Shown here: positions 11,229-62,429 of the stretch, one piece after another
Layout of the letters: each line of letters begins with the position of its first letter
Position numbering within the stretch: the stretch's first letter is position 1
Source: a virus
UHGV virus genome: UHGV-0171999
Strand: one strand, 5' to 3'
Length of the DNA: 64,000 nt
Made by a program: the position numbers and the translations under genes
Notes under the pieces: model-generated
Told to the model about the DNA's origin: nothing
Database searches by the model: none
Seen by the model: only the letters and a program-made list of their open reading frames with translations

Positions 11229-11258
11229 GTTTACACGTTGATGAGGTAGTGATACTAT
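11229..11258 (+). promoter_or_regulatory. early promoter (GTTTACA -35, extended -10 TGaTACTAT)
   Basis: sigma70-like elements with about 17-18 bp spacer, AT-rich upstream; precedes ipI. Confidence 0.6.
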
Positions 11259-11288
11259 TATCTCATCAAAATTAATTAGGAAAATAAA

Positions 11289-11575
11289 ATGAAAACTTTC
11301 AAAGAATTTACTTCTACAACTACCCCGGTTTCTACTATTACTGAAGCTACTCTTACTTCTGAAGTTATTAAAGCAAATAAAGGACGAGAAGGTAAACCAA
11401 TGATTAGTTTGGTTGATGGTGAAGAAATCAAAGGTACTGTTTACCTAGGCGATGGATGGTCTGCTAAAAGGATGGTGCTACAATCGTTATCTCTCCTGCT
11501 GAAGAAACTGCGTTGTTTAAAGCTAAACACATTTCTGCGGCACATCTCAAGATTATTGCTAAAAATCTTTTGTAA
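11289..11575 (+). pseudogene. ipI: internal protein I gene with apparent -1 frameshift in an A-run at about 11466-11469
   Basis: First 60 codons read MKTFKEF...GDGWSAK; after the A-run the zero frame reads RMVLQSLS... to 11603, while the +1 frame encodes DGATIVISPAEETALFKAKHISAAHLKIIAKNLL and stops near 11575, matching recalled T4 IPI. Confidence 0.6.
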
Positions 11576-11593
11576 TAAATATTTCACAAAGTT

Positions 11594-11623
11594 GTTTACA
11601 TAGGGTTTTAGTTGTGATACTAT
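11594..11623 (+). promoter_or_regulatory. early promoter
   Basis: GTTTACA, 17 bp, TGaTACTAT; overlapped by the frameshifted ipI read-through. Confidence 0.6.
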
Positions 11624-11651
11624 TACCCTATCAACTACCGAGGAGAATAAA

Positions 11652-11837
11652 ATGAAACGTTGTGAATTAATTCGAAATGTTGCTATTGCAATTTCTGCTT
11701 CTGCTTTTAGTTTTTCAATGTTTGTTGGATTTATATGCGGATTATTAACTACAGCAGAAAACGTTTTTTCACTTGTAGTAGCATTTTTAATTGGTTTAAT
11801 TGCTATCGTTATGGATAAAATTTCTAAAGGTGAATAG
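11652..11837 (+). CDS. small hydrophobic membrane protein
   Basis: 61-aa ORF with one long hydrophobic stretch; downstream of an early promoter. Confidence 0.45.
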   Translation: MKRCELIRNVAIAISASAFSFSMFVGFICGLLTTAENVFSLVVAFLIGLIAIVMDKISKGE

Positions 11838-12606: not shown

Positions 12607-12679
12607 TGGGAATTAGCCAAGTTGGTAAGGCACTGGATTTTGATTCCAGGATGCAAAGGTTCGAGTCCTTTATTCCCAG
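12607..12679 (+). tRNA. tRNA-Gln (anticodon UUG)
   Basis: Cloverleaf by eye: acceptor tgggaat/attccca, anticodon loop ttTTGat, T-loop TTCGAGT. Confidence 0.8.
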
Positions 12680-12680
12680 C

Positions 12681-12767
12681 GCGAGAATGGTCAAATTGGT
12701 AAAGGCACAGCACTTAAAATGCTGCGGAATGATTTCCTTGTGGGTTCGAGTCCCACTTCTCGCACCA
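12681..12767 (+). tRNA. tRNA-Leu (anticodon UAA), long variable arm, CCA encoded
   Basis: Acceptor gcgagaa/ttctcgc, anticodon loop ctTAAaa, T-loop TTCGAGT, ends ACCA. Confidence 0.8.
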
Positions 12768-12772
12768 AATTT

Positions 12773-12846
<74 letters not shown>

Positions 12847-12856
12847 ATTTAATTTA

Positions 12857-12931
12857 CTCCGTGTAGCTCAATGGCAGAGCGATCGCCTGTTAAGCGATTG
12901 GTTATAGGTTCGAATCCTATCACGTCCGCCA
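12857..12931 (+). tRNA. tRNA-like element, anticodon GUU (Asn), three mismatches at the acceptor-stem end; possible pseudo-tRNA
   Basis: D-arm GCTC/GAGC, anticodon stem atcgc/gcgat with loop ctGTTaa, T-arm atagg-TTCGAAT-cctat, 3' GCCA; 5' ctccgtg pairs with 3' cacgtcc at only 4 of 7 positions. Confidence 0.4.
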
Positions 12932-12935
12932 AATC

Positions 12936-13011
12936 CGAGGCATAGCTCAGAAGGAAGAGCAAGGACCTTCTAAGTCCTAGGTCGTAGGTTCGATCCCTAC
13001 TGCCTCGACCA
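12936..13011 (+). tRNA. tRNA-Arg (anticodon UCU), CCA encoded
   Basis: Acceptor cgaggca/tgcctcg, anticodon loop ctTCTaa, T-loop TTCGATC, ends ACCA. Confidence 0.8.
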
Positions 13012-13379: not shown

Positions 13380-13718
13380 AAACCGGGTCGCTACCGGTAA
13401 GTCGTCGGACTGATGTTCCCTGCGTAAGGACTGGCATTAACAAATCTTTACGATCTGTTAATGTCCCCTTACATCACAGCAGAAACGGCGCACAGAATTA
13501 TCGATTCGAGGAAATATCTTTGCCGTAAGCCGAGTAGCGTTTTTGACGGAACGTTCGGATATGGTCGAGATATGGCCTTTTAAAAATATTGAGTAGCGTC
13601 AACTGCTTAATAACCGGGTTCGAATCCCGGCGTTTCGTACAAACACTTGCCTTAGCAGGTGGAACCCCGACAAGGTTGCCGCAAGGCTTAGCCCCGACCA
13701 AAAGGTTGGGGCTTTTTG
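13380..13718 (+). ncRNA. putative stable small RNA region (species 1/2, rnaC/rnaD-like), ends in an intrinsic terminator
   Basis: About 340 nt with no credible ORF; contains tRNA T-arm-like ccgggTTCGAATcccgg near 13613-13629 and terminator hairpin plus T-run near 13690-13718; T4 has stable RNAs next to its tRNA cluster. Confidence 0.35.
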
Positions 13719-13850
13719 GTATCTAGGCCTTTCTGGACCTCTCTAGGCATCATTTAGTTTCTACCCTTTATAATATATTATCCTATCCTTTAATTGCCCC
13801 TTTCATCCCTAGAATTCCCTAAAACTTTTTAAAAAATTTTTCACAAAACT

Positions 13851-13880
13851 GTTTACACCCCTGTTCTTCCATGGTACTAT
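13851..13880 (+). promoter_or_regulatory. early promoter
   Basis: GTTTACA, 17 bp, TGgTACTAT; AT-rich upstream. Confidence 0.6.
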
Positions 13881-13923
13881 ACAACTATCAACTACTGATA
13901 CAGAAAACAACTTGGAGAATGAA

Positions 13924-14187
13924 ATGGATAATTACGGCGAACTGTTCAACTTCTTTATGAAATGCGTTTCAGAAGATTTCGGTCGTACAGTGAATGATAT
14001 TAAAGTTATCGGTCCTGACCATCCGATGTTTGAAACTTACGCAGTAATGGGTAATGAAGATGGTCAGTGGTATACTGTAAAGGTTGTGATTAACATGTTC
14101 ACTGCTGAAGGTTATGTTAAACTGTCTTCTAAAGTTTACCATGATAACGACGAAATCGCAGAAGAATATTTCAATAATATGAAATAA
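13924..14187 (+). CDS. hypothetical protein
   Basis: ORF 13912-14187; probable start at Met 13924 after SD ggaga. Confidence 0.5.
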   Translation: MDNYGELFNFFMKCVSEDFGRTVNDIKVIGPDHPMFETYAVMGNEDGQWYTVKVVINMFTAEGYVKLSSKVYHDNDEIAEEYFNNMK

Positions 14188-14217
14188 GTTTACATAGGCT
14201 CATGATTGAGATATTAT
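14188..14217 (+). promoter_or_regulatory. early promoter
   Basis: GTTTACA, 17 bp, TATTAT. Confidence 0.5.
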
Positions 14218-14885: not shown

Positions 14886-14889
14886 TGAT

Positions 14890-14910
14890 AAGGGGCTTCG
14901 GCCCCTATTA
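14890..14910 (+). terminator. UUCG-tetraloop hairpin (terminator or RNA-stability element)
   Basis: aggggc-ttcg-gcccct directly after the stop codon. Confidence 0.5.
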
Positions 14911-14926
14911 CTTGGAGTAAATAGGA

Positions 14927-17963: not shown

Positions 17964-17993
17964 GTTTACTTCCTCCAAGGACTTTGATACTAT
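17964..17993 (+). promoter_or_regulatory. early promoter upstream of denV
   Basis: GTTTACT, 17 bp, TGaTACTAT. Confidence 0.55.
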
Positions 17994-18020
17994 ACATTCA
18001 TCAACTACTTGGAGGAAATT

Positions 18021-18434
18021 ATGACTCGTATCAATTTAACACTTGTTTCTGAATTGACCGACCAACATCTTATGGCTGAGTATCGTGAATTACCACGCGT
18101 ATTTGGTGTAGTTCGTAAACATGTTCAAAACGGTAAACGTGTAAAGGATTTTAAAATCTCTCCAACATTTATCTTAGGCACAGGTCACGTAACATTCTTT
18201 TACGACAAACTCGAATTTTTACGTTTACGTCAAATCGAGCTAATCACTGAATGCTTGAAACGTGGTTTCAAAATCAAGGACACGACTGTCCAGGATATTT
18301 CCGACATCCCTGCCGAATTTCGTAATAATTATGTCCCGTCCGAAGCGTCCATTGCGATAAGTCAAGCACGCTTAGATGAAAAAATTGCTCAACGTCCTAC
18401 TTGGTACAAATACTATGGTAAATCAATCTACTAA
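18021..18434 (+). CDS. denV: endonuclease V, pyrimidine-dimer DNA glycosylase
   Basis: [12 protein letters not shown]...PTWYKYYGK; strong match to recalled T4 endo V; 138 aa from Met 18021. Confidence 0.9.
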
Positions 18435-21517: not shown

Positions 21518-21547
21518 GTTTACTTTTCCTCTTGACTGTGGTATAAT
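21518..21547 (+). promoter_or_regulatory. early promoter upstream of regB
   Basis: GTTTACT, 17 bp, TGgTATAAT. Confidence 0.6.
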
Positions 21548-25679: not shown

Positions 25680-25684
25680 CATTA

Positions 25685-25706
25685 GTCTCCTTCGGGAGAC
25701 TTTTTT
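25685..25706 (+). terminator. intrinsic terminator (UUCG hairpin plus T-run)
   Basis: gtctcc-ttcg-ggagac followed by tttttt. Confidence 0.6.
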
Positions 25707-25716
25707 CATTTTACCG

Positions 25717-25746
25717 GTTTACTTTCCATTTGAGCTGTGATACTAT
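25717..25746 (+). promoter_or_regulatory. early promoter
   Basis: GTTTACT, 17 bp, TGaTACTAT. Confidence 0.55.
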
Positions 25747-25774
25747 ACAACCATCGGATAAAGAGGAGAACATC

Positions 25775-25963
25775 ATGAAAATTGAAGCACTTAATCAAGA
25801 AGGAAATATCTACGTCATCATTAATGGTGATTTTTTCGTCGACATGGATGAAGTTACTAGTGAAGAACTTGTAGAACTTCTTAAGAAACGTTATGATATG
25901 TGTGATGAAGCTGCAACTCACATGGCGTGTGCAATATTCTCTCTTTCATATGTGGTGGAATAA
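25775..25963 (+). CDS. hypothetical small acidic protein
   Basis: ORF 25730-25963 with start at Met 25775 after SD agaggag. Confidence 0.4.
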
Positions 25964-29542: not shown

Positions 29543-29544
29543 TA

Positions 29545-29568
29545 GGGAGCCTTCGGGCTCCCTTTTTT
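29545..29568 (+). terminator. intrinsic terminator (UUCG hairpin plus T-run)
   Basis: gggagcc-ttcg-ggctccc followed by tttttt. Confidence 0.65.
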
Positions 29569-29593
29569 ATTTCAAAATTTTTTTCACAAAACA

Positions 29594-29623
29594 GTTTACA
29601 AGCATAAAGCTTTATGGTACTAT
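29594..29623 (+). promoter_or_regulatory. early promoter
   Basis: GTTTACA, 17 bp, TGgTACTAT followed by acaactatcaact. Confidence 0.6.
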
Positions 29624-29657
29624 ACAACTATCAACTGATACGGATTTGGAGAATAAA

Positions 29658-30626
29658 ATGAAAACTGTAACTATCAATAAGGGTATCTACTTCGGTAAAG
29701 AAATCTCTGGAACTTTTGAGCTCTTAGGCGAATGGTTCCCAGATAATGCTCCGGTAGATGCACAAGGAGATGGTAAAGTTTTTGTTGAAATTGACGGTAA
29801 ACGTCGCGGTGTTTGGGTTTACAAATCAGATATTTCATATGATGGTGTAAAAGTTGAAGAAGTTAAAGAATCATATGAAGATATGAAAACCCGCATTAAT
29901 AAAAGATTTAATGTTATGGGAATGATGACGAATGGTATTATTAACGGAAACATTCGTTCATTAATTATCTCTGGCGCAGCAGGTATTGGTAAAACGTATT
30001 CTTTAGATAAAGCTTTAAATAAAGCAAATGATATTGGATACATTGAATATAAAAGCATTAATGGTAAAATCTCTGGTATTGGTCTTTATGAGCAGCTTTG
30101 GAATAATCGTGAAGAGAATTCTGTCCTTTTGATTGATGATGTGGATGTTTTTTCTGATATGGACATTCTTAATCTTCTAAAAGCCGCTCTGGACACCGGA
30201 GAGACCCGTAAAGTATGCTGGAGCACTGCATCTTCCTACTTAGAAGAAAAAGGTATTGACCGTGAGTTTGAATTTAAAGGAACGATTGTTTTTATCACAA
30301 ACGTTGACATTGACCGCGAATTAGACCGTGGTACTAAACTTGCTCCACACTTACAAGCATTAGTGTCCCGCTCAGTTTATTTGGATTTGGGTGTTCATAC
30401 TAATGAAGAAATTATGGTCAGGGTTGAAGATGTTATTCTTTCAACTGACATGATGCAAAAGCGCGGTCTTTCTGATGAAGAAACTTATAAAGCATTATCA
30501 TGGATGAAAGTTAATGTAAACCGTTTACGCAATGTTTCACTGCGTACTGCTCTTTATCTTGCTGACTTTATTATGACCGACAAAAACGGTTGGGAAGAAA
30601 TTGCTGAGGTTACTCTTCTGAAATAA
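29658..30626 (+). CDS. putative P-loop ATPase
   Basis: ORF 29490-30626 with start at Met 29658; Walker A GAAGIGKT, Walker B-like VLLIDDVD. Confidence 0.55.
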   Translation: MKTVTINKGIYFGKEISGTFELLGEWFPDNAPVDAQGDGKVFVEIDGKRRGVWVYKSDISYDGVKVEEVKESYEDMKTRINKRFNVMGMMTNGIINGNIRSLIISGAAGIGKTYSLDKALNKANDIGYIEYKSINGKISGIGLYEQLWNNREENSVLLIDDVDVFSDMDILNLLKAALDTGETRKVCWSTASSYLEEKGIDREFEFKGTIVFITNVDIDRELDRGTKLAPHLQALVSRSVYLDLGVHTNEEIMVRVEDVILSTDMMQKRGLSDEETYKALSWMKVNVNRLRNVSLRTALYLADFIMTDKNGWEEIAEVTLLK

Positions 30627-31032: not shown

Positions 31033-31062
31033 GTTTACAAGACTGTTCCTCTGTGGTACTAT
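31033..31062 (+). promoter_or_regulatory. early promoter
   Basis: GTTTACA, 17 bp, TGgTACTAT followed by acaactatcaactac. Confidence 0.6.
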
Positions 31063-31090
31063 ACAACTATCAACTACGGAGGAACAGAAA

Positions 31091-31618
31091 ATGAACGCTA
31101 AAGATATTTTCAACTTGGTAAATTACAACGATGGTAAATTTAAATCTGAAGCACAAAGCAAGTTCTTTAATGACATCTCAATCGGAGGTGAAATCACTGT
31201 TGATGGAGGACAAATTTACAAATCACGTTGGAATTGGATCGTTATTATCGATGAGATTGGTATTGTAGAAATTTACAAGAATACGAATAAAAATCGTACA
31301 TTACACTGGTCTCGTGATACTAACGAACAGTATAAAAAGGATAAAGCATCTAAATTATCTCGTGTAACTCAAGAAGATATTGAGTTCATCAAGAAAGATA
31401 TTTTAATGTATGATAACTTAATTGCTGAAGAGCAAGCTGTTATTGATAAATTTGATGAGATTAAAGCTTCTCGTGAAATTCCTGATTTTATGAAAGAATC
31501 AGTAAATGAACGATACACTCTCATTTCAGAGCGTATTGAAACTTACAAAAAGCAAAGAGCTGAACGCCAAAATACTCTTCGGAAGTTTGAAGAACGGTTA
31601 AAGACGGTACTCGCATAA
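31091..31618 (+). CDS. hypothetical protein
   Basis: 175-aa ORF. Confidence 0.5.
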   Translation: MNAKDIFNLVNYNDGKFKSEAQSKFFNDISIGGEITVDGGQIYKSRWNWIVIIDEIGIVEIYKNTNKNRTLHWSRDTNEQYKKDKASKLSRVTQEDIEFIKKDILMYDNLIAEEQAVIDKFDEIKASREIPDFMKESVNERYTLISERIETYKKQRAERQNTLRKFEERLKTVLA

Positions 31619-33417: not shown

Positions 33418-34317
33418 ATGGAAGTAAGACCATTAAAAGAAAATAATAGAACTGCACGAATTAGCTTTAAACCTAATACAAAAAATTCTCTTTCAATTTG
33501 CGAATGCCTTAAATCGCAGTTGACAGAAGCATTTAAGTATATGGATGTTGTTGCCGCTGTTCAGTCTAAGATTTTACCTCGTTTTGAGCGATTTAAATTA
33601 GACACAACAACATATGAACTTGATATGATCGTTTCATTTAAATACGATTTTTTGAGAAAGGATGAAGTCCCGCAAGAGAAAAAGCAGGAAGTGCAAGATA
33701 ACTTAAATTTAAATTTATCTAATTACTCATCAAACGATCCTAAATTTTGGATGTATAGTTCAGGTAATGAGGATGCATGGAAATTCAATAAAGTGAATAT
33801 GCTTTTTAAGCATGCTCGCAAATTATTTACCGCGGGTGATGACCGTACAAATACAGTTCATGTTAAGGACTGGGTTATTGCTGATGAAGTAACACATAAG
33901 CCAGGTGGTTCATCAGTGTTAATTAATATCCAGGTTCCTTATTATTACTCACGTAATCTCGGCACCATGAACTCTAGAGAAATTAATAAGCACAACAAAA
34001 CTATTCGTTCGTTGTCTTATAAACTCCGCATGATGTTAAAAATCATGGACGTAGTGGAAATGTATGACGAAACCGAAGATAATGGTTCAATGTTATACAG
34101 CTCACGCATTCTAATTAAACTGAAGAACCCTAATACATACAAGCCAGTTGTAAAAGAACCTAAAGTAGAAAAGGTTGATAACCTGAGCGAAGAACGCGAA
34201 TATCTTAATGCTCGCTTAATTGAAGTTGAAAAACAGATTGAAGAGCATACTAAAGTTCTTAAAGATTTAACTGCCAAAGCAAATGGTTTACGTAATGCTA
34301 TTGAGGTATTAAAATGA
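33418..34317 (+). CDS. hypothetical protein
   Basis: 299-aa ORF; C-terminal coiled coil. Confidence 0.5.
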   Translation: MEVRPLKENNRTARISFKPNTKNSLSICECLKSQLTEAFKYMDVVAAVQSKILPRFERFKLDTTTYELDMIVSFKYDFLRKDEVPQEKKQEVQDNLNLNLSNYSSNDPKFWMYSSGNEDAWKFNKVNMLFKHARKLFTAGDDRTNTVHVKDWVIADEVTHKPGGSSVLINIQVPYYYSRNLGTMNSREINKHNKTIRSLSYKLRMMLKIMDVVEMYDETEDNGSMLYSSRILIKLKNPNTYKPVVKEPKVEKVDNLSEEREYLNARLIEVEKQIEEHTKVLKDLTAKANGLRNAIEVLK

Positions 34318-36933: not shown

Positions 36934-38747
36934 CAATTGAAAAAGAAATTGAAGGATTGATTCATAAAACTAATAAAGACCTTTTAAACGAGAATGCTAA
37001 TAAAGATTCTCGTGTTTTTCCAACTCAACGGGACCTTATGGCTGGTATTGTGTCTAAACACATTGCCAAAAATATGGTCCCGTCTTTTATTATGAAAGCG
37101 CATGAAAGCGGAATTATCCATTTCCATGATATTGATTATTCCCCTGCTCTTCCATTTACTAATTGCTGTTTAGTAGATTTAAAAGGAATGCTTGAGAACG
37201 GGTTTAAGCTCGGTAATGCACAGATTGAAACTCCTAAATCAATCGGCGTTGCTACTGCAATTATGGCACAAATTACTGCACAGGTTGCTTCCCATCAATA
37301 CGGTGGAACGACTTTTGCGAATGTAGATAAAGTACTTTCTCCTTATGTTAAACGCACCTATGCAAAACATATTGAGGATGCAGAAAAATGGCAAATCGCT
37401 GATGCGTTGAATTATGCCCAATCTAAAACAGAAAAAGACGTATACGATGCATTCCAAGCTTATGAATATGAAGTAAATACTCTCTTTAGTTCAAACGGAC
37501 AGACTCCTTTTGTAACAATTACATTTGGTACGGGAACTGACTGGACTGAACGAATGATTCAGAAAGCAATTCTGAAAAATCGCATTAAAGGTCTCGGTCG
37601 TGATGGGATAACTCCTATTTTTCCTAAGCTCGTTATGTTCGTTGAAGAAGGTGTTAATCTTTATAAAGACGATCCGAACTATGATATTAAGCAGCTTGCT
37701 CTAGAGTGTGCAAGCAAAAGAATGTATCCTGATATTATTTCAGCTAAGAACAATAAAGCTATCACCGGCTCATCTATTCCTGTTTCTCCAATGGGTTGTC
37801 GTAGTTTCTTGAGCGTATGGAAAGATTCGACTGGTAATGAAATTCTTGATGGACGTAATAATCTTGGTGTTGTAACACTGAATCTTCCTCGTATTGCGTT
37901 AGATTCTTATATTGGAACACAATTCAATGAACAGAAATTTGTTGAGCTATTTAATGAACGAATGGATCTGTGTTTTGAAGCATTGATGTGCAGAATTAGT
38001 TCCTTAAAAGGAGTTAAAGCGACTGTTGCTCCTATTCTTTACCAAGAAGGTGCATTCGGGGTTCGTCTTAAACCTGATGACGACATAATTGAGTTATTTA
38101 AAAACGGTAGAAGTTCAGTGTCCCTAGGATACATTGGTATTCACGAATTGAATATTCTTGTCGGTCGTGATATTGGACAGGAAATTTTAACTAAAATGAA
38201 TGCTCGTCTTAAGCAGTGGACTGAAAGAACCGGTTTTGCTTTTAGCTTGTATTCTACTCCTGCTGAAAACCTTTGTTATCGCTTCTGTAAACTTGATACT
38301 GAAAAATATGGAAGCGTAAAAGATGTTACTGATAAAGGTTGGTACACTAATAGTTTCCATGTTTCAGTAGAAGAAAATATTACTCCGTTTGAAAAGATTT
38401 CTCGCGAAGCCCCATATCATTTCATTGCAACAGGTGGTCACATTTCTTATGTTGAACTTCCTGATATGAAAAATAACTTAAAAGGTCTTGAGGCTGTATG
38501 GGATTATGCTGCACAACATTTAGATTATTTTGGCGTTAACATGCCAGTAGATAAATGTTTTACATGCGGAAGCACCCATGAAATGACTCCAACCGAGAAC
38601 GGATTTGTTTGTTCTATTTGTGGAGAAACTGATCCTAAAAAGATGAATACCATAAGAAGAACATGCGGATATCTTGGAACTCCTAGCGTTGTTCCATGGA
38701 ATTTAGGTAAAATGAAAGAAATGGTAAAACGAGTAAAACATGCATAG
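36930..38747 (+). CDS. nrdD: anaerobic ribonucleotide reductase large subunit NrdD
   Basis: 605-aa uninterrupted ORF; C-terminal glycyl-radical and zinc region CFTCGSTHE...RRTCGYLG. Confidence 0.92.
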   Translation: MTIEKEIEGLIHKTNKDLLNENANKDSRVFPTQRDLMAGIVSKHIAKNMVPSFIMKAHESGIIHFHDIDYSPALPFTNCCLVDLKGMLENGFKLGNAQIETPKSIGVATAIMAQITAQVASHQYGGTTFANVDKVLSPYVKRTYAKHIEDAEKWQIADALNYAQSKTEKDVYDAFQAYEYEVNTLFSSNGQTPFVTITFGTGTDWTERMIQKAILKNRIKGLGRDGITPIFPKLVMFVEEGVNLYKDDPNYDIKQLALECASKRMYPDIISAKNNKAITGSSIPVSPMGCRSFLSVWKDSTGNEILDGRNNLGVVTLNLPRIALDSYIGTQFNEQKFVELFNERMDLCFEALMCRISSLKGVKATVAPILYQEGAFGVRLKPDDDIIELFKNGRSSVSLGYIGIHELNILVGRDIGQEILTKMNARLKQWTERTGFAFSLYSTPAENLCYRFCKLDTEKYGSVKDVTDKGWYTNSFHVSVEENITPFEKISREAPYHFIATGGHISYVELPDMKNNLKGLEAVWDYAAQHLDYFGVNMPVDKCFTCGSTHEMTPTENGFVCSICGETDPKKMNTIRRTCGYLGTPSVVPWNLGKMKEMVKRVKHA

Positions 38748-39570
38748 GTATTATATAATTTATAAAATAACAAATATAATTAATTCAAAGGAATATATCG
38801 GTGCGCATAGCACCGATAACATAAATGATGGTTATATGGGGTCAGGAACATTGATTCGTGCCGCTTTATTAAAATATGGTAGAAAAAATTTTAATAAAGA
38901 AATTTTACATGTTTTTGATAATGAAAAACAAATGTATGATAAAGAAGCTGAACTTGTAACCGAAGAGTATTGTCTAAAAGAAAATACATATAATATTAAA
39001 CCCGGTGGAAAAGGTGGAACTGCGTATGAACAGACACTTGAACATCGCCGCAAAAATAGTTTAGCAAATAAAGGTAAAAAGAGAACAGAAGAAACTAAAA
39101 TAGCTATTTCACGTGCTTTAAAGAAATATAAACGTACGCCAGAGCATCAAGCAAATTTAAATAAAGCCGTAAGCATAGCTATGAAGCGAAAAGATGTTAG
39201 AAGTAAATTAGCTGGAGAGCGGTCTGAGAAAGATAAATTATCTATATCAAACGGTGTTAAAAAATATTACAATTCTTTGAGTGAAGAAGAACGCGAACTT
39301 CATCGCAAGCGAATTATTGAAGGTAAAAAGAATTCTCCCATGTCATTGGAATCTAGACAAAAGCTTTCAAAAGCTTTAAAAGGACTTCAAGTTGGTTCAA
39401 AAAATCCAATGTATGGAAAAATTTCTCCAACTAGCAAAACCGTTTCAGTTGACGGTATTAAATATGATTCAATTAAAAAGTGCTCAAATGCAATAAAAGT
39501 TTCTAGACATCTTATACTAAAACGCTGTAATTCTACTGATGAAGCTTGGAAAAATTGGATATTATTATGA
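38740..39570 (+). CDS. free-standing GIY-YIG homing endonuclease (Seg-like)
   Basis: N-terminal YIIYKITN...EYIGAHS GIY-YIG module; C-terminal basic repeats resembling NUMOD3-type DNA-binding motifs; overlaps nrdD stop and nrdG start. Confidence 0.8.
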   Translation: MHRYYIIYKITNIINSKEYIGAHSTDNINDGYMGSGTLIRAALLKYGRKNFNKEILHVFDNEKQMYDKEAELVTEEYCLKENTYNIKPGGKGGTAYEQTLEHRRKNSLANKGKKRTEETKIAISRALKKYKRTPEHQANLNKAVSIAMKRKDVRSKLAGERSEKDKLSISNGVKKYYNSLSEEERELHRKRIIEGKKNSPMSLESRQKLSKALKGLQVGSKNPMYGKISPTSKTVSVDGIKYDSIKKCSNAIKVSRHLILKRCNSTDEAWKNWILL

Positions 39571-41433: not shown

Positions 41434-41634
41434 ATGAATCCTGAATCTAAATTATCGCAACGAATTGCTGAAGCTCGTCGTCAGTTCTTTGAAAATATGA
41501 TAGCCCAAGGTATTGATGACGAAGTTTTTCTAAACTGGTTTTGGAATCACAAATATTCAAGTTGCTCAGGAGCAATATTAATATCAGCCGCAATGATGTA
41601 CGAAGGCTGGAAGGGTGCCAAACAGTTTAGCTAA
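41434..41634 (+). CDS. hypothetical small protein
   Basis: 66-aa ORF followed by a terminator. Confidence 0.4.
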   Translation: MNPESKLSQRIAEARRQFFENMIAQGIDDEVFLNWFWNHKYSSCSGAILISAAMMYEGWKGAKQFS

Positions 41635-41652
41635 GGGCTTCGGCCCTTTTTT
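41635..41652 (+). terminator. intrinsic terminator (UUCG hairpin plus T-run)
   Basis: gggc-ttcg-gccc followed by tttttt. Confidence 0.6.
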
Positions 41653-44070: not shown

Positions 44071-45285
44071 ATGAAAGTATGTATTTTTATGGCTCGAGGT
44101 CTTGAAGGTTGCGGTGTAACTAAATTTTCTCTTGAGCAGCGTGATTGGTTTATTAAAAATGGTCATGAAGTAACTTTGGTTTATGCTAAAGATAAATCAT
44201 TTACCCGTAATTGCGCGCATGATTATAAATCATTTTCAATTCCGGTTTTATTGGCAAAAGAATACGATAAAACGCTTAAGTTGGTAAATGATTGTGATAT
44301 TCTAATTATCAATTCAGTTCCTGCTACTTCAGTCGAAGAAGACACAATTAATAACTATAAAAAAATTATTGATAACATTAAACCTTCGGTTCGTGTTGTA
44401 GTTTATCAACATGACCATTCTTCTCTTTCTTTGCGCCGAAATTTGGGATTAGAAGAAACTGTTCGTCGAGCTGATGTTATTTTTAGTCATTCTGACAATG
44501 GTGACTTTAATAAAGTTTTAATGAAAGAATGGTATCCGGAAACTGTTTCTCTGTTTGATGATATTGAAGAAGCACCGACTGTATATAACTTCCAGCCTCC
44601 TATGGATATTGCGAAGGTTCGATCAACCTACTGGAAAGATGTTTCTGAAATTAACATGAATATCAACCGTTGGATTGGTCGTACGACTACATGGAAAGGT
44701 TTTTATCAGATGTTTGATTTTCACGAAAAACATCTTAAACCTGCAGGACTAAGTACTATTATGGAAGGTTTGGAACGTTCTCCAGCGTTCATTCCTATTA
44801 AAGAAAAAGGAATTCCAAAAGGAATTCCATACGAGTATTATCGTCTTCATCAAGTAGACCAAATTAAAATTGCTCCTAATTTGCCGACGCAAATTCTCGA
44901 CCGTTATGTAAATAGCGAAATGCTTGAACGCATGAGTAAATCCGGATTTGGTTATCAGCTGAGTAAGTTGGACAAAAAATATCTACAGCGTTCTTTAGAA
45001 TACACTCATCTCGAGCTTGGTGCATGCGGAACAATTCCAGTATTTTGGAAATCTACTGGTGAAAATTTAAAATTCCGTGTTGATAATACTCCATTAATTT
45101 CTCATGATAGCGGTATCGTTTGGTTTGATGAAAATGACATGGAATCAACATTTGAGCGTATTAAAGAACTGTCATCTGACCGAGCTCTTTATGACCGTGA
45201 ACGTGAAAAAGCTTATGAATTTTTGTATCAGCATCAAGATTCAAGCTTCTGTTTTAAAGAACAGTTTGACATTATTACAAAATAA
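44071..45285 (+). CDS. a-gt: DNA alpha-glucosyltransferase
   Basis: 404-aa ORF MKVCIFMARGLEGCGVTKFSLEQRDWFIKNGHEVTLVYAKDK...; strong match to recalled T4 alpha-gt. Confidence 0.9.
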   Translation: MKVCIFMARGLEGCGVTKFSLEQRDWFIKNGHEVTLVYAKDKSFTRNCAHDYKSFSIPVLLAKEYDKTLKLVNDCDILIINSVPATSVEEDTINNYKKIIDNIKPSVRVVVYQHDHSSLSLRRNLGLEETVRRADVIFSHSDNGDFNKVLMKEWYPETVSLFDDIEEAPTVYNFQPPMDIAKVRSTYWKDVSEINMNINRWIGRTTTWKGFYQMFDFHEKHLKPAGLSTIMEGLERSPAFIPIKEKGIPKGIPYEYYRLHQVDQIKIAPNLPTQILDRYVNSEMLERMSKSGFGYQLSKLDKKYLQRSLEYTHLELGACGTIPVFWKSTGENLKFRVDNTPLISHDSGIVWFDENDMESTFERIKELSSDRALYDREREKAYEFLYQHQDSSFCFKEQFDIITK

Positions 45286-45300
45286 AGGGCTTCGGCCCTT
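45285..45300 (+). terminator. UUCG-tetraloop hairpin after a-gt
   Basis: aagggc-ttcg-gccctt directly after the stop codon. Confidence 0.5.
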
Positions 45301-45461
45301 TAGCTTTATACGGAGTTTGATATAATGATATTTCTTGGATATGTGATACTTTTTCTGGCGTTTTATTTGTTCACCAGAGCATGTTGGATTGGGTTCTTTA
45401 GTACTCCAGATGGATTTATTTCAATAATTTTATTTTGCATTTCAATGACGGTTCTTGATAT

Positions 45462-46928: not shown

Positions 46929-48613
46929 AGAATTTTAAACTTAATAGAGTAAAATATAAAAATATAATGTCAGTTGGTCAAAATGGGATTGACATTCAAT
47001 TAGATAAGGTTCAAAAAACTCTTATTACTGGACGAAATGGCGGTGGTAAGTCTACTATGTTAGAAGCCATCACATTCGGGCTTTTTGGCAAGCCATTCCG
47101 TGATGTAAAGAAAGGTCAATTAATAAACAGCACAAATAAGAAAGAACTTTTAGTTGAACTGTGGATGGAATATGATGAGAAAAAGTACTATATCAAAAGA
47201 GGACAAAAACCAAATGTTTTCGAAATCACCGTTAACGGTACACGTCTTAATGAATCTGCCAGCAGTAAAGATTTCCAAGCAGAATTTGAACAGCTTATCG
47301 GAATGTCATATGCCAGTTTCAAACAGATCGTCGTACTCGGCACGGCTGGATATACCCCTTTTATGGGCCTATCCACTCCTGCAAGAAGAAAGCTTGTCGA
47401 AGACCTGCTCGAGGTAGGAACATTAGCTGAAATGGATAAGCTTAATAAAGCACTAATACGTGAATTAAATTCACAGAACCAAGTGCTTGATGTTAAAAAA
47501 GATAGTATTATCCAACAAATTAAAATATATAATGATAACGTTGAACGCCAGAAAAAATTAACTGGTGATAACCTTACTCGTCTACAGAATATGTATGATG
47601 ATTTGGCAAAAGAAGCCAGAACGTTAAAATCGGAAATAGAAGAAGCTAATGAAAGATTAGTTAATATTGTTTTGGATGAAGACCCGACTGATGCATTTAA
47701 TAAAATCGGTCAAGAAGCATTTTTAATTAAATCAAAAATTGACTCGTATAATAAAGTCATTAATATGTATCACGAAGGTGGATTATGTCCAACCTGTTTG
47801 TCACAATTAAGTTCCGGCGATAAAGTTGTTTCTAAAATTAAAGATAAAGTTTCTGAATGCACGCATTCGTTTGAACAGCTTTCAACACATCGTGATAATT
47901 TAAAAGTTCTTGTTGATGAATACCGAGATAATATTAAAACCCAGCAGACGTTGGCGAATGATATTCGCAATAAAAAGCAATCTCTAATCACGACGGTAGA
48001 TAAAGCTAAAAAAGTTAAAGCAGCTATAGAAAAGGCATCATCTGAGTTTATTGACCATGCTGATGAAATAGCACTGCTTCAAGAAGAACTTGATAAAATT
48101 GTTAAGACAAAAACTAATTTAGTAATGGAAAAATACCACAGAGGAATTTTGACTGACATGCTCAAAGATTCTGGTATTAAAGGTGCTATTATTAAAAAGT
48201 ACATTCCATTATTTAATAAGCAGATTAACCATTATCTTAAAATAATGGAAGCGGATTATGTGTTTACATTAGATGAAGAATTTAATGAGACAATTAAATC
48301 CCGTGGTCGTGAAGATTTTAGTTATGCTTCATTTAGTCAAGGTGAAAAAGCACGAATTGATATTGCTCTTTTATTTACTTGGCGTGATATTGCTGAAAAA
48401 GTTTCAGGTGTTAAAATAAGTTGTTTATTTCTTGATGAAGTGTATGACGGTGCATTTGATGCTGAAGGTATTAAAAATGTGGCTAAAATTTTAGATGGTT
48501 TGAAGAATACCAACTTCTTCATAATTTCGCATAAAGACCATGACCCACAGGAATATGGTCAGCACATTCAAATGGAAAAAGTTGGTAGATTTAGTTTAGC
48601 TAAGATTAGTTAG
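46925..48613 (+). CDS. 46: recombination exonuclease subunit gp46 (Rad50/SbcC-like ATPase), apparent GTG start
   Basis: 562-aa ORF; Walker A GRNGGGKST, central coiled coil with CPTC zinc hook, C-terminal Walker B LFLDEVYDG. Confidence 0.92.
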   Translation: MKNFKLNRVKYKNIMSVGQNGIDIQLDKVQKTLITGRNGGGKSTMLEAITFGLFGKPFRDVKKGQLINSTNKKELLVELWMEYDEKKYYIKRGQKPNVFEITVNGTRLNESASSKDFQAEFEQLIGMSYASFKQIVVLGTAGYTPFMGLSTPARRKLVEDLLEVGTLAEMDKLNKALIRELNSQNQVLDVKKDSIIQQIKIYNDNVERQKKLTGDNLTRLQNMYDDLAKEARTLKSEIEEANERLVNIVLDEDPTDAFNKIGQEAFLIKSKIDSYNKVINMYHEGGLCPTCLSQLSSGDKVVSKIKDKVSECTHSFEQLSTHRDNLKVLVDEYRDNIKTQQTLANDIRNKKQSLITTVDKAKKVKAAIEKASSEFIDHADEIALLQEELDKIVKTKTNLVMEKYHRGILTDMLKDSGIKGAIIKKYIPLFNKQINHYLKIMEADYVFTLDEEFNETIKSRGREDFSYASFSQGEKARIDIALLFTWRDIAEKVSGVKISCLFLDEVYDGAFDAEGIKNVAKILDGLKNTNFFIISHKDHDPQEYGQHIQMEKVGRFSLAKIS

Positions 48614-49322
48614 GTTTATATTTACAATTATCATTATGCCATCTTGATAAATTTCCGAAAGTGGTAACTTTACCACAATGGACGCAAGTACCAGTCTTTT
48701 CAGTTTTCTTGCGTCCATTTGGATTTTTCTTGCAGAAATTTCTATGCGCTGCGATAACGCATTTCTTGCCTATCATTCCGCAGAATTCGCAGGATGTTTC
48801 TTCAAGAACGATTGCTTTAAGCCCGTTTGAGATATTATTTCTGTGTTCTTTAGACATTGGCGGTCTAACTTTAGGATTGGGGTGATTTGGGCAGTTATCA
48901 AAATGCCATCGATTCATATTCCCGCTTAATCCAGACTTACCGCAATGTGGACAAGTTAGTCTTGCTTTATTAGCTACTGCATCGGACATTTTCTTTCGTG
49001 TCTCTTGGGAGAACTCTTTATTCTTTTCTATTTCCCAGAGTTTACGACGAATCCAGCCGAAAGTTTTATTGTTGCGTTTAGCGTATTTCGTAGAAACTGT
49101 CATCATGTTAGCAGCATAGACTAATTTTGGTTCAGAAGGATAAATTTTTACTAAAAGTTGATGAGCTACATAGTGCTCTTCTGGTGTTAAATCTACTAAG
49201 TTTGAAGCATCATCGCTACCATTTAAACAGCGTGGTATAATGTGATGAGATTCAGTATAGCAATCAAGTTTTCGAGATTTAGCATTAGAGATTAACTTTT
49301 CGTAAATTAGTTTATAATTCAT
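48606..49322 (-). CDS. HNH homing endonuclease (Mob-like), antisense to neighbouring genes
   Basis: HNH motif ESHHIIPRCLNGSDDASNLVDLTPEEHYVAH; three C-terminal CxxCG...RWHxDNC zinc-finger-like repeats; overlaps gene 46 stop by 8 nt. Confidence 0.8.
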   Translation of the reverse strand: MNYKLIYEKLISNAKSRKLDCYTESHHIIPRCLNGSDDASNLVDLTPEEHYVAHQLLVKIYPSEPKLVYAANMMTVSTKYAKRNNKTFGWIRRKLWEIEKNKEFSQETRKKMSDAVANKARLTCPHCGKSGLSGNMNRWHFDNCPNHPNPKVRPPMSKEHRNNISNGLKAIVLEETSCEFCGMIGKKCVIAAHRNFCKKNPNGRKKTEKTGTCVHCGKVTTFGNLSRWHNDNCKYKPN

Positions 49323-50019: not shown

Positions 50020-50706
50020 ATGAAACTGTCTAAAGATACTACTGCTCTGCTTAAAAATTTCGCTACTATTAACTCCGGTATTATGCTTAAATCTGGTCAA
50101 TTTATTATGACTCGCGCGGTTAATGGTACAACTTATGCGGAAGCAAATATTTCTGACACTATTGATTTTGATGTAGCGATTTACGATTTGAACGGTTTTC
50201 TCGGTATTCTGTCCCTAGTTAATGACGATGCAGAAATTTCCCAGTCAGAAGATGGAAATATTAAAATTGCTGATGCTCGTTCAACAATTTTTTGGCCAGC
50301 AGCCGATCCGAGTACAGTAGTTGCTCCTAATAAACCAATTCCATTCCCAGTAGCATCTGTTGTTACCGAAATTAAAGCTGAAGACCTTCAACAGCTGTTG
50401 CGTGTATCTCGTGGTCTGCAGATTGATACAATTGCTATCACAGTAAAAGAAGGTAAAATCGTAATTAACGGTTTTAATAAAGTAGAAGATTCTGCTTTGA
50501 CCCGTGTTAAATATTCTTTGACTCTTGGTGATTATGATGGTGAAAATACATTTAATTTCATTATCAATATGGCAAATATGAAAATGCAACCAGGAAATTA
50601 TAAACTTCTGCTCTGGGCAAAAGGTAAACAAGGCGCTGCTAAATTTGAAGGTGAACACGCGAATTATGTAGTAGCTCTTGAAGCTGATTCTACTCACGAT
50701 TTTTAA
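50020..50706 (+). CDS. 45: sliding clamp gp45
   Basis: 228-aa ORF MKLSKDTTALLKNFATINSGIMLKSGQFIMTRAVNGTTYAEANISD...; matches recalled T4 gp45. Confidence 0.95.
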   Translation: MKLSKDTTALLKNFATINSGIMLKSGQFIMTRAVNGTTYAEANISDTIDFDVAIYDLNGFLGILSLVNDDAEISQSEDGNIKIADARSTIFWPAADPSTVVAPNKPIPFPVASVVTEIKAEDLQQLLRVSRGLQIDTIAITVKEGKIVINGFNKVEDSALTRVKYSLTLGDYDGENTFNFIINMANMKMQPGNYKLLLWAKGKQGAAKFEGEHANYVVALEADSTHDF

Positions 50707-50708
50707 TA

Positions 50709-50724
50709 GAGGGCTTCGGCCCTT
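50709..50724 (+). terminator. UUCG-tetraloop hairpin after gene 45
   Basis: gagggc-ttcg-gccctt. Confidence 0.5.
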
Positions 50725-50757
50725 TATAATTTACACTAAAACTTGAATGAGGAAATT

Positions 50758-52652: not shown

Positions 52653-52654
52653 GC

Positions 52655-52672
52655 AAGGGGCTTCGGCCCCTT
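52655..52672 (+). terminator. UUCG-tetraloop hairpin after regA
   Basis: aaggggc-ttcg-gcccctt. Confidence 0.5.
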
Positions 52673-52693
52673 ATTTGGAGTATAATATATCAA

Positions 52694-55427: not shown

Positions 55428-55440
55428 TAGAATAAATCTA

Positions 55441-55461
55441 GGGACCTCCGGGTCCCTTTTT
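55441..55461 (+). terminator. intrinsic terminator after gene 43
   Basis: gggacc-tccg-ggtccc followed by ttttt. Confidence 0.65.
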
Positions 55462-55544
55462 CATACAAGTAATATAAATCTATACTTAGGAAAAATAGAT
55501 GATTCTAGGTCCTGTAAATTCATTAAAATTTTTTTCACAAAACT

Positions 55545-55574
55545 GTTTACATCCCTGTTCTTCCATGGTACTAT
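55545..55574 (+). promoter_or_regulatory. early promoter
   Basis: GTTTACA, 17 bp, TGgTACTAT followed by acaactatcaactac; near-identical to the cassette at 13851. Confidence 0.6.
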
Positions 55575-55602
55575 ACAACTATCAACTACGGAGGAACACA
55601 AA

Positions 55603-55854
55603 ATGAAAAATATTCAAACTAATTTTATTCAAAATTTAAAAGTTGTTAATGCAGAAAAAGCTAATAAACTCTTTAAAGTTAAAGAATTCGAAAATGAAGG
55701 TAATACTTATGGTATTATAGAACAAAATGGAATGGTGACTGGATTAGAAATTTATATTGGCAAAGGAAAATTTCAGTCACAGCCAATTTCTGTTATGGGT
55801 GTAAGAAAAGGAATTAAAATTGAAGATGCTTTAAAATTATTTGCTAAGTTTTAA
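55603..55854 (+). CDS. hypothetical protein
   Basis: 83 aa from Met 55603; ORF 55420-55854 upstream part is promoter read-through. Confidence 0.5.
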   Translation: MKNIQTNFIQNLKVVNAEKANKLFKVKEFENEGNTYGIIEQNGMVTGLEIYIGKGKFQSQPISVMGVRKGIKIEDALKLFAKF

Positions 55855-55866
55855 GAGGAAATTGTT

Positions 55867-56247
55867 ATGAAAATCGCTATTTTGGTTATTGCATTAGGTC
55901 TTACTGGTTGTGTAGCTCAAGGACCGGTAGTGAATCAGTCTGATGTAGGAAAAATTGTAAACTGTTCAAGCAAATTTTATAATCCTAATGTCAAGTGTTA
56001 TAAAGAAGCTCCAAAGCAGACAGTAGAACAAATGCAGGCGAATTTTGACGAAGCTATTCGTCCAGATGAATCTGCTCAAGCATATCGTAATTCAGATGTG
56101 ATTACACGTGAAGAAAAAATTGAAAACTACTGCGCCGAACTTTGGGTTAATTGGGCTAATAATTACCAATGGCGTACTGGTAAAAATGCTCCAATGGAGT
56201 ATGTAGTGAATTCTTATAATTCATGCGTAAAAAATTTGACTAAGTGA
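55867..56247 (+). CDS. predicted lipoprotein
   Basis: Signal peptide with lipobox MKIAILVIALGLTGC. Confidence 0.5.
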   Translation: MKIAILVIALGLTGCVAQGPVVNQSDVGKIVNCSSKFYNPNVKCYKEAPKQTVEQMQANFDEAIRPDESAQAYRNSDVITREEKIENYCAELWVNWANNYQWRTGKNAPMEYVVNSYNSCVKNLTK

Positions 56248-61763: not shown

Positions 61764-61793
61764 GTTTACAAGCTGATAGAGTTGTGTTATAGT
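61764..61793 (+). promoter_or_regulatory. early promoter
   Basis: GTTTACA, 17 bp, TGtTATAGT. Confidence 0.55.
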
Positions 61794-61824
61794 AATTCTA
61801 TCAGCTAATCGCGGAGAAAAGAAA

Positions 61825-62079
61825 ATGATGCTAGTTAATAGAGAATATCAGTTTAAATCAGAAGAAGATTTGGAAAAATTCGCAAGTGGTTGTGAACTGA
61901 ATAGACGCACAGCTAAAGTCATAGGATTAAAACCCTTTACAGTTCTAGATTGTGAAGTTTCTAAATTCCGCAGAGGGTGTTCTATTAGCGGTCATGCTCT
62001 GGTTGATGGGAATACATTTTTCTTTGTTTTTAGCGTCAGAGAACTTTTATTGATTAACGAACTTGAGGAAATAAAATAG
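61825..62079 (+). CDS. hypothetical protein
   Basis: 84-aa ORF. Confidence 0.45.
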   Translation: MMLVNREYQFKSEEDLEKFASGCELNRRTAKVIGLKPFTVLDCEVSKFRRGCSISGHALVDGNTFFFVFSVRELLLINELEEIK

Positions 62080-62107
62080 TTTACTTTTGTTTTAAACATG
62101 TTATTAT
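62079..62107 (+). promoter_or_regulatory. early promoter
   Basis: GTTTACT, about 16-17 bp, TGtTATTAT. Confidence 0.5.
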
Positions 62108-62143
62108 AGACCTATCAAAACAAACGAGTAAATGGAGAACAAA

Positions 62144-62326
62144 ATGTCTAAAGTATCAGGTTATCAATTATTAACACAAGAACAACGTTCAGAGATGGAT
62201 TCTTTACAAGAACGGTGTCAGCATAGAAATAACGCACTTGATTCATTTTTATTAGTTGAATATGAAAACTTGTGCTCTAGACTTGAAAAAGAATATGTTC
62301 ATCAACATGAAGGAGGAGAAGAATGA
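62144..62326 (+). CDS. hypothetical small protein
   Basis: ORF 62132-62326 with Met at 62144. Confidence 0.4.
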   Translation: MSKVSGYQLLTQEQRSEMDSLQERCQHRNNALDSFLLVEYENLCSRLEKEYVHQHEGGEE

Positions 62327-62429
62327 AACTGAAATCACCAATTATTGCAATTTGTCTGTTTGCTTCTACTGGTGTTTACTTTTGTTGAAAATTGAGATAT
62401 TATAAACATAAACTACTGAGGAGATTATC

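Follow-up and report, generated by a model that had tools for sequence, protein, structure and literature searches.

The closest described relatives of the elements considered here are the promoter early stem-loop (PeSL) elements of T4-type phages, which were defined in RB49 and phi1 together with evidence for mini-circles and an experimental demonstration of terminator activity (Arbiol et al. 2010, PMC2839356), and which in PST and T4 have the promoter consensus TTTACW-N17-TAYWAT and stems placed just upstream of the promoter (Comeau, Arbiol, Krisch 2014, PMC4122927). T4 early promoters are composed of an upstream (UP) element, a -35 element, a TGn motif and a -10 element, with extra conserved regions (PMC2988021). 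Here we analysed a stretch of 64,000 nucleotides (nt) of the virus genome UHGV-0171999 (the window), in which a preliminary description had pointed to dispersed, near-identical early-promoter cassettes of the PeSL kind. The four copies are named by the start of their GTTTACA: 13851 (copy 1), 29594 (copy 2), 31033 (copy 3) and 55545 (copy 4). We conclude that they are probably early promoter cassettes, kept by selection and recombination and serving as crossover points. The mechanism is that of the published PeSL model (Arbiol et al. 2010; for T4/PST, Comeau et al. 2014) and, because the class has been published in this phage group and the copies are orthologs of T4 early promoters, it is already known; the covariation at early promoters between the promoter spacer and the 5' untranslated region (5'UTR) with its Shine-Dalgarno sequence (SD) is the sole element that may add to the literature.

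The resemblance to the PeSLs of RB49 and phi1 (PMC2839356) lies in the build of the element, a composite of about 100 bp that joins promoter, stem-loop, SD and ATG and is dispersed in plastic regions, in the flanking open reading frames (ORFs), which differ between relatives, in stems that often lie between -35 and -10 or overlap -10, and in recombination between copies as the proposed mechanism. The RB49 and phi1 elements differ in their near-perfect TTGACA/TATAAT hexamers and their stems of G-runs and C-runs, they have no sequence homology to the window cassettes, and mini-circles and terminator activity are experimental there, whereas the window cassettes are known from sequence. With the PeSLs of PST and T4 (PMC4122927) the window cassettes share the phage group and the promoter consensus, an AT-rich upstream tract, SD and ATG on the 3' side, and a location next to ORFs that differ between close relatives; in fact, the ndd.4/ndd.5 example belongs to the same sub-family, and most Tequatrovirus records match a copy-4 query best at that place. 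Unlike in PST and T4, the stems of the window mostly bracket -10, and a hairpin lies immediately upstream at only two of the six copies named in the preliminary description. The T4 early promoters themselves (GTTTAC(N14)gtggTAttaT) include the orthologs of the four copies, with an identical 22-mer, which T4 also has upstream of motA; the difference is that copy 4 of the window apparently drives an ORF of 83 amino acids (aa) not in T4, behind a 5'UTR of the nrdC.8 type and not of the imm.1 type.

The core of the family is the 22-mer TGGTACTATACAACTATCAACT, present in four exact copies on the plus strand, one at each site previously named, against an expectation of 0 by chance (100 shuffles of the window). 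Every copy has GTTTACA upstream and GGAG plus ATG downstream, in agreement with the SD said to follow the promoter block. A comparison of the window with itself recovered the same family over 77 nt by repeat search, with 91% identity between 13822-13898 and 55516-55592. The gap of 17 bp given for the distance from GTTTACA to TGGTAC has to be corrected, as it yields 0 matches even with three mismatches; the true gap is 14 nt, and it is the hexamers TTTACA and TACTAT that stand 17 nt apart. The parts of the four copies, and the ORF behind the last one, are as follows.

13822-13926, plus strand: copy 1, the e.8 promoter, at a site conserved in T4, T2, Nami and RB51; A/T-rich UP tract 13822-13850, TTTACA 13852-13857, TGn plus TACTAT 13872-13880, 22-mer 13872-13893, SD GGAG 13914-13917, ATG 13924.
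29544-29660, plus strand: copy 2, the nrdC.10 promoter; putative UUCG-tetraloop terminator 29544-29563 with a T-run, then the UP tract, TTTACA 29595-29600, palindromic spacer CATAAAGCTTTATG, TACTAT 29618-29623, 22-mer 29615-29636, SD GGAG 29648-29651, ATG 29658.
31033-31093, plus strand: copy 3, the nrdC.8 promoter, whose -35 element begins 2 nt past the nrdC.9 stop codon; TTTACA 31034-31039, TACTAT 31057-31062, 22-mer 31054-31075, SD GGAGG 31078-31082, ATG 31091.
55516-55605, plus strand: copy 4, the promoter of the 83-aa ORF; TTTACA 55546-55551, TACTAT 55569-55574, 22-mer 55566-55587, SD GGAGG 55590-55594, ATG 55603.
55603-55854, plus strand: the 83-aa ORF behind copy 4, without a Pfam family, between the cassette and imm.1 (55867-56247).

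As regards dispersal in plastic early regions, a trait of PeSLs, the window holds about 17 early promoters, four of them with the identical core. The set used for comparison comprised 17 T4-type early promoters on the plus strand, each with GTTTAC, a spacer of 16-17 nt, TGn, TAnnnT and then cTATCA. Over the whole cassette (80 positions) ordinary pairs share 30-45 positions, 13851 and 55545 share 69, and the pairs with 29594 and 31033 share 50-57. At the 14 least constrained positions of the spacer, 13851 and 55545 agree at 13/14, compared with about 4/14 for ordinary pairs, and the spacer of 31033 shares 8/14 with each of these two copies. Starting at TGG, 31033 and 55545 agree throughout (31/31 positions), other pairs reaching 15-20/31, and their exact match of 33 nt stops 6 nt short of the ATG. 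A position matrix derived from the 13 remaining early promoters of the window gives the 22-mer a probability of 10^-5.8, and for four identical copies among 17 promoters P<1e-13. The copies are therefore far more alike than the promoter consensus requires, and the similarity beyond that consensus, which the preliminary description had supposed, is borne out.

A purely functional origin of the similarity, in which strong T4 early promoters converge on one optimum, recombination plays no part and the association with insertions and deletions (indels) is incidental, would agree with the conservation of T4 early promoters well past -35 and -10 (PMC2988021), and a near-invariant 22-mer between varying flanks does point to selection on the core. 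Nevertheless, the probability of the 22-mer under the window's own promoter matrix speaks against it, as does identity that reaches into the spacer and through the 5'UTR to the ATG, and for the spacer and UTR segments convergence is already contradicted. A second alternative, that the copies are remnants of whole-gene segmental duplications with their promoters included, has nothing in its favour beyond the repeat itself and is hardly credible, as similarity ends at the ATG. In fact, segmental duplication is refuted by the four downstream products (e.8, 87 aa; nrdC.10, 322 aa, with weak AAA/STAND-like matches; nrdC.8, 175 aa; the 83-aa ORF), which are dissimilar (blastp E>2) and have no Pfam family in common; since these proteins are unrelated, the repeat does not stem from gene duplication.

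The phage context was established by matches of 96-98% over gene 43 and its flank to Tequatrovirus genomes (KFS-EC3, T2, RB27, T4-like) and of about 96% over 11-32 kb to EcNP1/Nami-type phages, which assign the window to Tequatrovirus, as T4/T2-like. T4 85,742-18,481 is collinear with window positions 1-64000 (local BLAST), so that the window holds the T4 early region from genes 4/2/3/1/57 to sp (4/2/3/1/57, tRNA, e, ip, vs, tk, mobD and nrdC clusters, followed by 45/44/62/regA/43, imm, 42, uvsX, 41 and sp), and its plus strand is the T4 early (counter-clockwise) strand. In all four copies TTTACA and TACTAT are separated by a spacer of 17 nt and TGG precedes TACTAT; AAAATTTTTTTCACAAAAC lies upstream in three copies, and 31033 overlaps the end of nrdC.9 there instead. 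All copies are on the early strand, each immediately before an ORF that has an SD, at positions orthologous to T4 early promoters, those upstream of e.8, nrdC.10, nrdC.8 and imm.1. The exact 22-mer recurs at the orthologous sites of T4, T2, Nami and RB51, the relatives used for both the ortholog and the junction comparisons, with one G-to-A change in RB51 as the sole exception; thus 20 orthologous copies of the 22-mer contain 1 difference, against variable spacers and UTRs. Within the parts of T4 that were compared, motA and ndd.6 also have the exact 22-mer upstream and frd.3 has a near copy, which brings the T4 total to six exact copies and one near copy. Likewise, the related genome OL960581 annotates the orthologous sites as 'similar to phage T4 early promoter GTTTAC(N14)gtggTAttaT'. 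The copies fit early sigma-70 promoters, and the promoter reading of the preliminary description is supported by the TTTACA-17-TGn-TACTAT arrangement, the A/T-rich tract, SD and ATG, the early strand and the T4-orthologous sites; activity in this phage is predicted from architecture and orthology.

The diverged copies previously noted near 17964 and 25717 are true relatives (TGATACTATACATTCATCAACT and TGATACTATACAACCATCGGAT), the T2 ortholog of the latter reading TGGTACTATACAACTATCGGAT, and related sites that had gone unmentioned lie at 11229, 11594 and 40772. Cassette matches number 8-9 per genome in 561 phage records, by name mostly Tequatrovirus-type coliphages and relatives. Two further observations concern the nrdC.10 copy elsewhere. 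In T4, the frd.3 (146854) and nrdC.10 (55363) promoters, 90 kb apart, have about 70 nt in common, including the palindromic spacer AGCATAAAGCTTTA with a HindIII site inside. In Salmonella phage STML-198 (Gelderlandvirus; 1480-1550 of the stretch compared), the nrdC.10 core, 5'UTR and SD are 95.7% identical over 47 nt at the equivalent locus, after an ADP-ribosylase-like gene as in T2, and the copy has neither the GTTTACA -35 element nor the UP tract, being a truncated cassette.

The four copies are not only alike but assembled from common pieces. An exact match of 37 nt, spacer plus core, joins 55545 to 13851, and the 33-nt match described above, core plus 5'UTR/SD, joins it to 31033; copy 55545 therefore reads as the upstream half of the 13851 type fused to the downstream half of the 31033 type. 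At the locus of copy 4, between gene 43 and imm.1, the 5'UTR after the 22-mer is different in T4 and Nami, and haplotypes from 11 genomes (five from GenBank, six from IMG/VR) comprise spacers of the e.8 type (tccctgttcttcca), of the nrdC.8 type (agactgttcctctg) and hybrids (agactgttcttcca), with two types of 5'UTR (ACGGAGGAAC... or (ACT)GATACGGATTTGGAG...). Each type of spacer 5' half is found with each of the two UTR types, four combinations in all. The T2 copy at this locus matches the nrdC.8 cassette of Nami at every position from -35 to ATG but has the local upstream tract, and one identical -35-to-ATG module stands before three unrelated ORFs, which begin with MNAKDIF, MKNIQTNF and MKKIIKAIWNVV. 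Because these haplotypes differ by several nucleotides at a time, exchange between copies, with crossovers in the invariant core, is the economical explanation, and the occurrence of all four combinations at one locus is a further point against functional convergence.

Junctions between conserved and variable genes were located by chained BLAST alignments of the window with the four relatives, and the junction sequences were then read. The other promoters and hairpins to which they refer are listed here.

11229-11654, plus strand: related promoters at 11229 and 11594 (TGATACTATTA(T/C)C...ATCAA), either side of an ipI-type gene.
13690-13713, plus strand: terminator-like hairpin AGCCCCGACC-AAAA-GGTTGGGGCT followed by T5, 138 nt upstream of copy 1.
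17964-18024, plus strand: diverged copy at the internal-protein/denV locus.
25684-25787, plus strand: diverged copy near 25717, with a UUCG hairpin (25684-25701) directly before it.
55440-55457, plus strand: hairpin GGGACC(U)-UCCG-GGGUCCC followed by T5, right after gene 43 and 87 nt upstream of copy 4.
61764-62440, plus strand: early promoters 61764, 62079 and 62374, which bound two small ORFs not in T4/T2.

At nrdC.11|nrdC.10, the place of copy 29594, neither the window nor T4 has an insert. T2 carries there a promoter, a 162-aa ADP-ribosylase-like ORF and a hairpin, bounded by a direct repeat of about 38 bp that consists of terminator T-run, UP tract and GTTTAC; Nami carries two ORFs and a second early promoter between the cassette and nrdC.10, bounded by the 21-bp SD-ATG repeat TTGGAGAATAAAATGAAAACT; and in many other records this junction gives two-piece matches that span 260-1300 bp beyond the query. 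The 83-aa ORF at copy 55545 is found in the window, T2 and RB51 and not in T4 or Nami, and occurs in 31 of the 561 cassette-bearing phage records, always at this locus; its left junction, 55587-55592, coincides with the 3' end of the 22-mer. Junctions of variable ORFs lie within the element at 29594, at 55545 and at six other promoters. Genes of the ipI type are swapped between the promoters at 11229 and 11594, where T2 and RB51 hold other internal-protein genes, the e.7 slot is variable directly after the promoter at 14188, gene order at the ip/denV locus changes at the promoters at 17964 and 18705 (T4, T2, RB51), the breakpoint against all three falling at the diverged copy 17964, and the promoters at 61764 and 62374 bound the two ORFs not in T4/T2. 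Nami is without 282 bp between the promoters at 62079 and 62374, the junction being a shared 13-mer, GTTTACTTTTGTT. Altogether 22 of 134 breakpoints fall within promoter elements, which make up 3.7% of the sequence, and 11 of 15 promoter-bearing junctions are polymorphic compared with 36 of 90 others (Fisher p=0.017). The shuffling proposed in the preliminary description is supported by inserts bounded by duplicated cassette parts, which convergence on a promoter optimum does not account for, and by this modest enrichment; the breakpoint mapping then suggested finds junctions at 29594 and 55545 and none at 13851 and 31033 in the four relatives.

Similar events take place at hairpins and at internal-protein loci. 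The event nearest to 13851 is an insert of 1.2-1.6 kb at hairpin 13690-13713 in Nami and RB51, bounded by 30-34 bp repeats of the hairpin, which the RB51 annotation describes as 'flanked by 34 bp imperfect direct repeat'. This hairpin follows a small-RNA/tRNA region. Shuffling of the T-even internal-protein locus (Repoila et al. 1994, cited by PMC2839356 and PMC4122927) is alike in that genes are replaced between conserved early-promoter elements, in the window those at 11229/11594 and 17964/18705; it is unlike in that the homology there includes the N-terminal targeting codons (MKTY...), and the four focal copies are not at such loci. A repeated start, ATGAAAAC-TA--AAGAAT (MKTYxEF), is present at the small ORFs 11289, 17681, 18441, 18765 and 63351; it resembles the N-terminal targeting sequence that is conserved in T-even internal proteins, and it provides extra homology at their loci.

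The stem-loop component of the cassettes departs from what had been described. A UUCG hairpin terminator was said usually to precede the copies; this holds at 29594 and 25717, the only two with such a hairpin and T-run directly upstream, and fails at the other four of the six named copies. The folding free energy (dG, in kcal/mol, with z scores against shuffled sequences) is -16.4 (z -4.0) for the UUCG hairpin of copy 2, -13.9 (z -3.6) for the UCCG-loop hairpin at 55440-55457 and -19.5 (z -4.2) for the AAAA-loop hairpin at 13690-13713; copy 31033 adjoins the nrdC.9 stop codon and has no upstream hairpin. UUCG-tetraloop GGGGCTTCGGCCCC hairpins are also found between genes (after e.6, 45, regA and others), away from early promoters, at 14888-14913, 41626-41652, 45282-45307, 50706-50731 and 52653-52678. 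Most early promoters have a -35/-10 spacer complementary to their own downstream sequence, with the -10 box in the loop and a stem sequence that differs from promoter to promoter. For 16 promoters of the window (11229-62440) the duplex energy of spacer and downstream sequence is -11.4 kcal/mol for cognate and -7.2 for 240 non-cognate pairs; 0 of 20,000 permutations reached the observed cognate mean (p<5e-5), and the promoter's own partner ranked first in 8 of the 16, 31033 being at rank 1/16. The result was replicated with 11 T4 early promoters from 120-169 kb, outside the region homologous to the window (-11.9 vs -7.0, same p). Compensatory changes in the stems were sought among the T4, T2, Nami and RB51 orthologs, which are too alike to inform, and covariation was tested across paralogous promoters instead; across these, the covariation of spacer with 5'UTR/SD is solid. 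The stem-loop component in most early promoters of the window is this complementarity and not an upstream terminator.

The best example is 31033, with a stem of 15 bp between the spacer (31043-31057) and the 5'UTR/SD (31073-31087); its read-through RNA has a dG of -25.5 kcal/mol (z -6.6, 0/200 shuffles). At 55545 positions 55556-55569 pair with 55585-55598, one pair being G-U (dG -13.9, z -2.8), at 17964 the spacer TTCCTCCAAG pairs with the SD region CTTGGAGGAA (dG -17.8, z -3.9), and the read-through RNA of the promoter at 21518 folds with z -4.4; in all four (31033, 21518, 17964 and 55545) the 3' arm is the SD sequence. The focal copies thus differ in their nearest stem-loop, which brackets the promoter at 31033 and 55545, is the upstream UUCG hairpin at 29594 and lies 138 nt off at 13851. 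Folding is better for the sense than for the antisense strand (-13.2 vs -10.7, p=0.025), as if G-U pairs were tolerated, which argues for RNA rather than DNA, and since the 5' arm lies upstream of the putative start site, the helix would form only in transcripts arriving from upstream. Hairpins of T4 e, soc, 49 and I-TevI have the same layout, a 5' arm upstream of the proximal start and a 3' arm over the SD, so that only proximal-promoter transcripts are open for translation (PMC3014915); the proximal promoter is late there and early in the window, where the arrangement is deduced from sequence.

We tentatively hypothesize, with considerable doubt, that T-even early promoters are nearly all split hairpins, with read-through RNA folded and untranslatable where the SD is the 3' arm and own-start RNA open. 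If so, translation of each early gene would depend on its own promoter, and the whole hairpin (spacer, core and 5'UTR) would be a unit that must travel together, which would explain both the identical -35-to-ATG module before unrelated ORFs and the loss of the stem where a crossover in the core parted its arms; 13851 and T4 imm.1 are candidates for such a separation of a spacer from its matching UTR. Such stems also raise the possibility that the block serves mainly RNA-level control, as a leader with a GGAG RegB site and an SD-hiding hairpin, and that its repetition reflects shared post-transcriptional regulation. The covarying stems of the window and T4, the better folding of the sense RNA, the 31033 stem, which covers GGAGG, the T4 precedents just mentioned, in which the ribosome site is sequestered in longer transcripts, and the fact that RegB cuts early mRNAs at GGAG where the site is not structured (PMC3014915) are all in line with it. 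We nevertheless find it unlikely as the main explanation: such a stem is present at no more than two of the four focal copies, the invariant 22-mer corresponds to the loop and -10 region and not to the stem, it lies mostly upstream of the putative start and is therefore not in the gene's own mRNA, and the insert junctions stay unexplained. Control at the RNA level is compatible with the reading of the copies as promoter cassettes and crossover points, and does not exclude it.

Several results weigh against the view that the copies are active promoters at which recombination is focused. A generic sigma-70 scan does not discriminate in the AT-rich window (80 sites vs 77 expected), and being uninformative it leaves promoter status to the extended T4 architecture and orthology; the literature searched gave no usable published 5'-end maps for the orthologous T4 promoters or for this phage. 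The read-through RNAs of 13851 and 29594 have no bracketing stem (z>0; 13851 z=+0.2). Indels fall in intergenic gaps anyway, hence the comparison with other gaps of at least 40 nt, and there the excess of promoter junctions is not significant (11/15 vs 16/33, p=0.10), which is also a point for functional convergence. About three quarters of the polymorphic junctions have no early promoter, and many have homing endonuclease genes. The right junction of the 83-aa ORF, at the imm.1 ATG, has no cassette and shows only ATGAAAA start-codon microhomology. Copies 13851 and 31033 have no junction in T4, T2, Nami or RB51, and loss of nrdC.10-nrdC.9, the product of a crossover between copies 2 and 3, was not found in 60 sampled records. 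Even so, the spacer and UTR identities, the haplotype combinations and the duplicated cassette parts make functional convergence improbable, and early promoter cassettes maintained by selection and recombination are the reading that we prefer.

According to this reading, the cassettes would be strong T4-type early promoters for the host sigma-70 RNA polymerase, each made up of an A/T-rich UP tract, (G)TTTACA, a 17-nt spacer, TGgTACTAT, a conserved start-site block and a GGAG SD; as promoter, 5'UTR and ribosome site are all present, each cassette is complete and portable. The four copies would form one paralogous sub-family, common to T4, with unrelated early genes behind them, and two forces may maintain it: purifying selection on the 22-nt core (extended -10, discriminator, start site and first transcribed bases), and repeated recombination or gene conversion between copies, which would produce the mosaic spacers and 5'UTRs. 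Regions of 60-80 nt of high identity that contain exact matches of 22-37 nt could serve as crossover points for the very active recombination of T4, for which small patches of homology reportedly suffice (Singer et al. 1982, cited in PMC2839356); the terminator hairpins and SD-ATG motifs alongside may act as crossover points too. Small early ORFs would be gained, lost and replaced there, arriving ready for expression, and the spacer/5'UTR stem may silence or punctuate read-through transcripts, while those started at the cassette would stay open. Since all copies are in direct orientation, exchange between them is expected to give deletions, circles and insertions, not inversions; mini-circles, the recombination pathway and a terminator or gating role of the stems are inferred.

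The cassettes might instead be recognised, as att-like or target sites, by a dedicated enzyme (a site-specific recombinase or a homing-type nuclease) that moves small ORFs, a possibility raised for PeSL stem-loops by Arbiol et al. (PMC2839356), and several homing-endonuclease-like ORFs of the window are not in the relatives (38740-39570, 48606-49322). We regard this as very improbable, as the place of the junction varies with the event (T-run/UP/-35, 22-mer end, SD-ATG, -35 plus spacer), which fits exchange guided by homology and not cleavage at one fixed site, the inserts have no linked recombinase gene, and the homing endonuclease insertions of the window are not at cassettes. Lambdoid morons and integron cassettes are comparable in that a small ORF comes with its own signals, as in the T2 insert, and sits at a permissive intergenic site; morons are not thought to move by their regulatory sequences, and integron cassettes have an integrase and attC sites, no such enzyme being evident in the window.

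With homology-guided exchange between cassettes as the preferred reading, the window confirms in one more T-even genome, with junction detail, that such cassettes combine expression signals with recombination handles. Many of the accessory early genes swapped in this way are candidates for host takeover or anti-defence functions, and for annotation the cassettes mark reliable early-gene starts and variable genome slots. The covarying complementarity suggests, in addition, a promoter-specific translational gating of early genes.

Other variable places of the window are of a different kind. Only four tRNA genes (Gln, Leu, Gly, Arg) are found at 12607-13011, T4 having eight and T2, Nami and RB51 nine to ten, and the tRNA cluster is one more variable slot. 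The ORF at 33418-34317 resembles a fusion of nrdC.5 and nrdC.3, with nrdC.4 gone, presumably through unequal exchange between paralogs; at 33787-33804 all four relatives are about 1717 bp longer (T4 51180 to 49460), the alignments overlapping by 18 bp. Two ORFs not in T4/T2, one at 38740-39570 (plus strand, 276 aa) with weak DNA similarity to segB, the other at 48606-49322 (minus strand, 238 aa) with an RB51 counterpart annotated as a mobB-like homing endonuclease, are insertions of the homing-endonuclease type and bear no relation to the cassettes.

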